DNA of 64,000 bases, taken from positions 5,146,001 through 5,210,000 of the forward strand of contig OX597835.1 of the NCBI GenBank assembly GCA_951406725.2, given 5' to 3'. Positions 1-63,790 of this stretch are shown here, piece after piece. Position numbers and translations under genes: made by a program. Origin of the DNA: Octopus vulgaris. Its lineage: Eukaryota. The notes beneath the pieces were generated by a model. It did not search any database, was not told the DNA's origin, and was given only the letters and a program-made list of their open reading frames with translations. Each line of letters begins with the position of its first letter. Within the stretch, counting starts at the first letter, position 1.

Positions 1-96
1 ATTAAGAAAAAGACTCTGACCATTACACTCTTCCAGAATGGAGAACTTACACCAGGAACCAAGATTTACCGTCTTAATGGTGGGAAGAAATTTAAG
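1..96 (+). CDS. VWDE: Exon 1 (5' truncated by window), unit 1 [35 protein letters not shown]
   Basis: Donor GT at 97, phase 0; homologous to the ends of exons 18 and 34 ([22 protein letters not shown]). Confidence 0.85.

Positions 97-63790: not shown

Follow-up and report, generated by a model that had tools for sequence, protein, structure and literature searches.

Exon structure of the locus and the repeat unit

The analysed window, a stretch of 64,000 nucleotides of Octopus vulgaris DNA (C22:5146001-5210000; genome size 2.8 Gb), holds part of a giant gene on the plus strand, the whole model of which spans 437 kb (C22:4836772-5273868). It encodes a tandem array of units, each with a VWD domain, and the following parts were assigned in the window.

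1..63790 (+), gene part from unit 10 to the start of unit 13; 46 of 230 modelled exons
1..2657 (+), unit 10 VWD, final three exons (A ends at 96; B, 1517-1628; C, 2549-2657)
3683..9166 (+), unit 10 Cys-rich linker, C8-like helical domain and EGF start (exons 3683-3855, 6263-6375, 7483-7641, 8977-9166); domains assigned via the structure model of a homologue
12817-13004, 13957-14139, 16338-16452 (+), unit 10 EGF end, IPT/TIG domain and short Cys-rich module
16890-17197, 18764-19088 (+), two-exon LamG-fold cassette after unit 10
20055-20287, 23683-23775 (+), unit 11 Ig_VWDE-like domain
24066-24470 (+), unit 11 Ig-like beta-sandwich, termed M
25311..30932 (+), unit 11 VWD, five exons; Cys-x4-Asp-Pro-His in the 77-nt exon, calcium-site-like CGxFD motif in the 109-nt exon
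33313..43751 (+), unit 11 linker, C8-like, EGF, IPT and Cys-rich modules, seven exons, the last three RNA-spliced
45015..45656 (+), LamG-fold cassette exon after unit 11 (phase 1-1, 642 nt)
46496-46719, 48359-48451 (+), unit 12 Ig domain, covered by RNA contigs
49637-50059 (+), unit 12 M domain, covered by RNA contigs
51525..54636 (+), unit 12 VWD, five exons, Asp-Pro-His motif present
55364..60138 (+), unit 12 linker, C8-like, EGF, IPT and Cys-rich modules, seven exons
60958..61593 (+), LamG-fold cassette exon after unit 12
62746-62981, 63698-63790 (+), unit 13 Ig domain

Gene building covered 540 kb around the window, without any N; iterated exon profiles yielded 16 exon types in a fixed order, and their boundaries were set by a splice-site search. 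The resulting plus-strand model contains the same 46 exons in the window that a preliminary description had counted. The size given there for a 16-exon unit, 3,099 nt, is exactly the sum of the exons from 27598 to 51941, and the reported lengths of paralogous exons (109, 115 and 93 nt, three copies each; 213, 77 and 64 nt, two each) are right. Conservation of phases was likewise recovered, with one start phase per exon type in all 13-14 copies, a regularity that is partly built in, as phase was a constraint of the exon search. Compared within the window alone, paralogous exons match at E-values down to 1e-26, far beyond chance. As described, the window starts inside a VWD (unit 10 exon A, ending at 96) and ends on the Ig exon of the next unit (63698-63790), and the predicted continuation of the array in both directions was borne out by VWD and LamG exons located beyond both window ends. 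The proposed domain order also holds, each unit running from Ig, Ig-like and VWD via C8-like and EGF to IPT and Cys-rich modules, with LamG between some units. LamG had been placed inside a super-module of ~1,030 aa; it does follow 8 of the 14 units, but as an optional cassette, and the duplicated core comprises 15 exons and ~800 aa, extending up to 1,030 aa with LamG. The octopus units are 22-41 % identical to one another.

In genome searches with single exons, all 14 VWD candidates lie on the plus strand between C22:4893328 and 5244585; the M exon occurs 8 times, each time within the giant-gene locus, and the LamG exon 7 times in this locus and twice on C8. The C8 matches were rejected as a second copy of the gene, as LamG alone occurs among the 13 matches listed; a gene of its own, at ~117004900-117018100 of C8, contains four or more such LamG exons, which belong to the same subtype and are 20-29 % identical.

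Introns in the window are filled by many SINE-like repeats. An intronic minisatellite (9721-12619; 31-bp unit, ~94 copies, 93 % matches) yields spurious 1,000-codon minus-strand frames, and a long (TTC)n/(TCC)n simple repeat (24480-25143) lies directly 3' of the unit 11 M exon.

Gene model and transcript evidence

Extension into the flanks, which the preliminary description had proposed for counting the units, gave 14 units, a candidate signal-peptide exon and a C-terminal transmembrane segment with tail. The model consists of 230 exons with 40,833 nt, which read through in a single frame for 13,610 aa, every internal joint being GT-AG. This openness is partly due to the construction, in which phases were prescribed, 6 boundaries placed manually and 25 exons obtained by targeted search. 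The candidate signal peptide is followed by a discoidin domain (F5/8 type C, three exons), unit 1, two PAN domains, unit 2 and two further PAN domains. Units 3, 4, 5 and 6 are adjacent, their three junctions being empty of cassettes, and LamG is found after each of units 6-13. A Thr/Ser/Pro-rich, mucin-like exon of 160 aa after the last LamG precedes unit 14, behind which the model closes with a phase-compatible transmembrane exon, a 26-aa tail, a stop and AATAAA signals. Every cassette is inserted at the same phase-1 position, behind the 115-nt exon and ahead of the Ig exon. The N-terminal exons match F5/8 type C at E 0.0017 and a snail N-terminus profile at E 6e-11, and three of the four PAN exons score above the Pfam PAN_1 cut-off. 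The intron before the first exon of each unit measures 0.8-2.3 kb (units 2-14), and the median intron 1.4 kb. Overall, 187 N-glycosylation sequons were counted in the modelled protein, Cys makes up 4.5 % of it, and unit 14 has an Arg-Lys-Lys-Arg site.

The candidate signal-peptide exon is located 20 kb upstream, where the sequence may derive from repeats. The helical-domain exon of unit 6 is 105 nt long instead of ~156 and ends in a (TA)n run (C22:5060724-5060850); its last ~16 codons and donor site, whole in the O. bimaculoides model, were not found nearby in the assembly, and a weak donor was chosen. The shortening may represent an assembly error or a real allele. This exon has phase 0-0, and skipping it would keep the frame. 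A Thr-rich run between two unit 2 exons was dismissed as an exon, no splice-compatible candidate being available. Unit 7 has lost an intron, its 77- and 64-nt exons being fused (C22:5075698-5075835), and the LamG exons after units 10 and 13 have new introns at different positions (window 16890-19088; C22:5228222-5229531). The intron that separates discoidin exons one and two harbours a nested, antisense ORF of 1,057 codons without introns (C22 ~4859830-4863000, minus strand) with an N-terminal SKICH domain (E 5e-25), which we take to be TAX1BP1/CALCOCO-like.

Window positions 40101-60100 are covered by RNA-like contigs from four runs of four studies, the RNA nature of which was deduced from intron-free contigs and spliced joints. 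In all four runs these contigs splice across the boundary of units 11 and 12, their joints running from EGF via IPT, LamG, Ig and M into the next VWD, all with GT..AG, so that Ig and M of unit 12 are joined to the preceding LamG exon and the following VWD. Among the joints listed (15 of 68), all 13 gene joints coincide with model exon ends and the remaining two fall in repeats. The spliced distance from 40307 to 59672 is 3,438 nt in contig and model alike. The longest contig (20,834 nt), placed via the model, extends between the unit 7 M exon and the Thr-rich exon that follows unit 13. Contigs end within this exon, at base 194 in three of four cases and at base 105 in one. The first repeated 31-mer of the exon begins at base 165, which means that a unitig must stop at 194; the stop at that base is attributed to this repeat, which breaks a de Bruijn contig, and not to a transcript end. 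A transcript ending in unit 13 was discarded on these grounds, and since the contigs reach into the Thr-rich exon, the latter is spliced in.

Separate tandem genes, to which transcripts starting or ending between units would have pointed according to the preliminary description, are rejected within the window by the direct splicing across a unit boundary; together with the 20.8-kb contig, this makes one gene across the window practically certain. RNA support covers units 7-13 and the start of the Thr-rich exon, and units 1-6, unit 14, the transmembrane exon and the 5' end are likely joined to them, as judged from splice-site modelling and homologues. The giant gene is present at exon-level share in at least 14 RNA-like runs of the four studies. 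It is very improbable that the array is a tandem cluster of independent VWDE-like genes, or that the model has fused two to three genes at its ends. Such a cluster would agree with the split database models (Bulinus Btru_047520/047521, Argonauta, the O. bimaculoides fragment), with the one-unit genes of the same family in snails and with the restriction of RNA proof to units 7-13; against it stand the crossed unit boundary, the finding of neither signal peptide, stop nor long gap between units, the presence of just two hydrophobic segments, one per end, in 13,610 aa, and single homologue models that cover units 1-2, 1-4, 3-5 and 3-8. One giant extracellular protein arisen by serial duplication of a whole VWDE-like core, as originally suggested, is thereby supported. 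Because the model ends in a transmembrane exon and a short tail, the product is probably a single-pass type I membrane protein rather than a secreted one, and there is a high probability that the whole 14-unit membrane protein of ~13,600 aa exists as modelled.

Domain folds, relatives and history

Scanned exon by exon, VWD, EGF, TIG and Ig_VWDE gave weak Pfam matches, whereas the VWD match is strong in spliced homologues (10 of 10, E 1e-49 to 3e-8). Ig_VWDE remained below cut-off in window exons (E 0.007 and 1.5e-4) and reached 33.4 bits over the whole Pecten homologue, for which the threshold is 28.1; PF26129 'Vwde' is precomputed on nine of ten homologue matches, including the Octopus and Argonauta fragments. 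The structure model of a one-unit snail homologue, computed from an alignment with 14 window exons among its sequences, has pLDDT 80.6 and pTM 0.78. Its residues 172-576 (VWD, helical C8-like domain, EGF) superpose on MUC5B, MUC2, VWF and FCGBP with Z 23.7-21 (best match: Z 23.7, rmsd 4.0, 278 aligned), and residues 578-681 correspond to IPT (Z ~7). Residues 28-171 resemble PapD, MSP and Ig-like folds at a Z of 7-8.7, which is just middling, and the M domain is therefore called only Ig-like. An Atlas search with the M exon gave no usable match. The LamG-like exon alignment had no match among Pfam and PDB sequences; its predicted fold (pLDDT 86.5) is a concanavalin-A-like/LamG sandwich, which 50 ConA-like chains, laminin LG, pentraxin and PAPP-A among them, match at Z 17.6 to 10.7 (best: Z 17.6, rmsd 3.3, 190 aligned). 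Laminin_G_3 is matched by a nemertean (3.6e-9) and an abalone homologue. The likeness to clostridial neurotoxin binding domains goes no further than the shared ConA-like fold, at 9-15 % identity.

At the start of the VWD, Cys-x4-Asp-Pro-His is present in 12 of 14 units (10 NDPH, 1 TDPH, 1 GDPH), and Asp-Pro-His with an upstream Cys in all 16 listed homologues, 15 of non-D8C and one of D8C type. The motif CGx(F/Y)DxxxxxD, which we take to be the VWD calcium site, is kept in 12 of 14 VWDs.

A profile of the 14 M exons was searched against 1.84 billion representatives and retrieved mostly bacterial repeat proteins; at least 10 animal proteins, named hypothetical or uncharacterized and carrying several of the unit exon types, were among the 150 matches listed. 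The bacterial matches are repeats of giant surface proteins with Calx-beta domains and may reflect a shared Ig-like fold or old kinship. The animal matches stem from Bulinus, Argonauta, Pecten, Bradybaena, Tubulanus, Biomphalaria, Candidula and Aplysia. Further ones, from Lineus, Ostrea, Haliotis and B. glabrata, came from a second search, as did a fragment of O. bimaculoides that is 81-90 % identical to the modelled protein. The preliminary description had suggested seeking the repeated architecture in mollusc and other invertebrate proteomes; the module order recurs in molluscs and nemerteans. Protein searches with the unit 14 M exon (0 of 406 candidates; weak evidence either way) and, among longer proteins, with the LamG exon (0 of 461) retrieved nothing.

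Overlapping homologue models tile the order signal peptide-discoidin-unit 1-PAN-unit 2 through unit 8. PAN after units 1-2 also occurs in Pecten, Aplysia and Biomphalaria, and LamG of Bulinus begins, as in octopus, after the matching later unit. Complete relatives possess one unit (snails, abalone, oyster) or two units (nemerteans), and no relative with more than two units plus a transmembrane end was present among the homologues examined. These numbered 17, with two isoforms left out; in eight, a C-terminal hydrophobic segment directly follows a unit or its LamG, the other nine being fragments that end without a terminus. Two snail relatives end like the octopus protein, in the order LamG, Thr/Pro-rich stretch, unit and transmembrane segment. 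Snails, abalone and nemerteans have short family members that combine discoidin, one to five LamG, one or two units, a transmembrane segment and an NPxY-like tail, two of them with a Thr/Pro-rich stretch; single-exon searches found no separate short-form gene in the octopus genome.

In quick trees with SH-aLRT support, without bootstrap, the first units of gastropods join unit 1 (98-99), the second units of Pecten and snails join unit 2 (100), and units 4 and 5 fall with snail units (92-97); the placement of unit 3 is unstable between two trees. An AU test on 33 rows, with 6 partial units omitted, rejects the placing of all cephalopod units in one clade (p=0.0024), and with it a cephalopod-only origin of all units. 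Units 6-13 cluster with support of 98 in one tree; in the other the value is 90 and the cluster is open, a Bulinus unit falling with it. Each of units 8-10 has a partner among units 11-13 (support 99 in every case), and the trees indicate a three-unit block duplication older than the Octopus-Argonauta split. The lineage-specific origin claimed in the preliminary description accordingly holds for units 6-13 only: because units 1, 2, 4 and 5 group with snail or scallop units, the array as a whole is not lineage-specific, although the LamG-bearing units of the window appear to have expanded in cephalopods. One- to two-unit relatives are present in gastropods, oyster and nemerteans. The gene is larger and older than the preliminary description supposed.

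Known VWD proteins and a possible role

VWDE has one VWD plus EGF repeats, in agreement with the preliminary description, and a suggested role in the extracellular matrix (PMC7390686, PMC9117669); vertebrate vwde is a blastema gene (PMC7390686). The octopus unit, with its putative Ig_VWDE-like domain, shares with this family VWD and PF26129, the latter seen on homologues, and the nearest Atlas clusters of the one-unit homologue are VWDE-like (score 0.90). However, the octopus protein has 14 cores instead of one, one EGF per unit instead of an EGF array, PAN and LamG cassettes, a predicted transmembrane anchor and a discoidin N-terminus, whereas the nearest Atlas clusters carry D8C_UMOD on more than 80 % of their members; D8C was not matched in Pfam scans of 10 homologues. 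The octopus protein is VWDE-like by its core and not a VWDE orthologue by architecture.

FCGBP has 13 VWD assemblies, the most of any known vertebrate protein (PMC8267560), 11 of them with self-cleaving GDPH, the fragments being disulfide-held (PMC8267560, PMC10880436). Its cleavage requires Asp and His residues (PMC10880436), and its own function is described as unknown (PMC8267560). Tandem VWDs are shared with octopus (14, of which 12 with DPH; fold match Z 21.2), but FCGBP is secreted and consists of VWD-C8-TIL-E units with an FCGBP_N domain, whereas the octopus protein has Ig, IPT, LamG/PAN spacers, a unit of 800-1,030 aa, mostly NDPH and a predicted anchor. In the homologue model EGF and IPT follow the helical domain, and Pfam scans of homologues had no match to C8, TIL or FCGBP_N. 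As in gel-forming mucins and VWF, VWD, the helical C8-like domain and a small Cys-rich module form the assembly that superposes on MUC5B, MUC2 and VWF, and a Thr-rich stretch is present, although only one, of 160 aa; the D1-D2-D'-D3 array, long PTS domain, TIL-E, CysD and cystine knot of these mucins are missing from the octopus model, and a membrane anchor is predicted instead. MUC4, SUSD2 and mesh are likewise single-pass proteins with VWD (Atlas look-alikes: SUSD2 0.79, mesh 0.76), and zonadhesin combines tandem D domains with a transmembrane anchor; all four have another repeat unit, and the octopus protein is far larger. NIDO and AMOP, which precede VWD in the MUC4, SUSD2 and mesh group, were not found in the Pfam scans of the homologues, nor were sushi and MAM.

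The architecture had been regarded as uncharacterised, which stands insofar as no full description was found. The family is probably mentioned once, in the report of a lophotrochozoan protein with multiple VWD, without VWD-C8-TIL and with function unknown (PMC4948705, Lang et al. 2016), in the supplement of which Lottia, Aplysia and Crassostrea entries are labelled PAN_1. These labels match the octopus PAN cassettes; unit, length, LamG, discoidin and anchor are undescribed and octopus is not included in the available parts of PMC4948705, and the protein, matched by description, probably corresponds to fragments of this family. Beyond that sentence the literature covered, largely outside subscription journals, contained no description of the architecture.

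The overall explanation preferred here, at a probability of about 0.5, is a 14-unit membrane protein acting as a very long tether of the surface coat; that this is its main function has an even chance or slightly less. A single-pass protein of ~13,600 residues would anchor in the epithelial surface coat and hold mucus or matrix glycans away from the cell. Each unit would form a compact bead, similar to a mucin D assembly, that is rich in disulfides and binds calcium, and 12 of the 14 VWDs may, by motif and by analogy with FCGBP, self-cleave at Asp-Pro with the halves staying disulfide-joined. The discoidin, PAN and LamG folds are predicted to bind glycans, and with usual domain sizes 14 beads and spacers would reach ~0.2-0.3 micrometres if extended. 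A broader version is more tentative: an ancient, mollusc-wide giant surface protein with 14 self-cleaving beads and swappable phase-1 lectin cassettes may be the main mucus-coat anchor. Just as tentatively, the bead order may predate the cephalopod/gastropod/bivalve split, with block duplication lengthening the cephalopod array, and the octopus protein could rank among the largest single-pass membrane proteins.

Other roles are less probable. NPxY is an internalisation signal, megalin/cubilin-type receptors are internalised, and the tail motif Asn-Pro/Leu-x-Tyr/Phe/Leu, which resembles NPxY, occurs in all six relatives with unit, transmembrane segment and full tail; together with the C-type lectin domain (PF00059) of one oyster relative, this would suit a giant endocytic or pattern-recognition receptor that captures food glycoproteins or microbes and is internalised. 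For octopus such a receptor seems unlikely, as NPxY is absent from the modelled 26-aa tail, the six relatives are one- to two-unit forms, and a 1.5-MDa chain with a mucin-like stretch would be awkward cargo for a coated pit. Somewhat more doubtful still is a mechanical link between cells, or from microvilli or cilia to matrix (hair cells, rhabdomeres, suckers), the length of which would be set by unit number. Conservation of the unit order from the time when the mollusc classes diverged suggests that units have position-specific roles or that the length is fixed, and Ig-like, LamG and VWD domains with a transmembrane anchor occur in known links such as usherin, ADGRV1, tectorin, otogelin and mesh; but unit number varies from 1 to 14 among relatives, and presence in at least 14 RNA-like runs of four studies would be expected of a widely sampled tissue rather than of a rare cell type. 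The secreted matrix, mucus or adhesive scaffold of the preliminary description, with the anchor absent or shed and VWD beads polymerising, has slightly poorer prospects again. While the mucin-type D-assembly fold agrees with it, and the 12 Asp-Pro-His sites and Arg-Lys-Lys-Arg of unit 14 could free the ectodomain, the in-phase transmembrane exon after the last unit, the similar ending of eight relatives and a model without the TIL/E, CysD and cystine-knot exons of gel-forming mucins speak against it.

The gene assembled here is represented in public annotations by just 'uncharacterized' fragments. Its 14 VWDs exceed the 13 of FCGBP, the vertebrate maximum according to PMC8267560. It exemplifies how a protein evolves when an entire multi-domain core (15 exons, 800 aa), which offers a single slot to exchangeable cassettes, is duplicated, unit identity being preserved across mollusc classes. 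If the protein is truly a surface-coat anchor, it would offer a testable handle on mollusc epithelial barriers, and its orthologues in Biomphalaria, Bulinus, scallop and oyster would bear on the host surfaces met by parasites and microbes.
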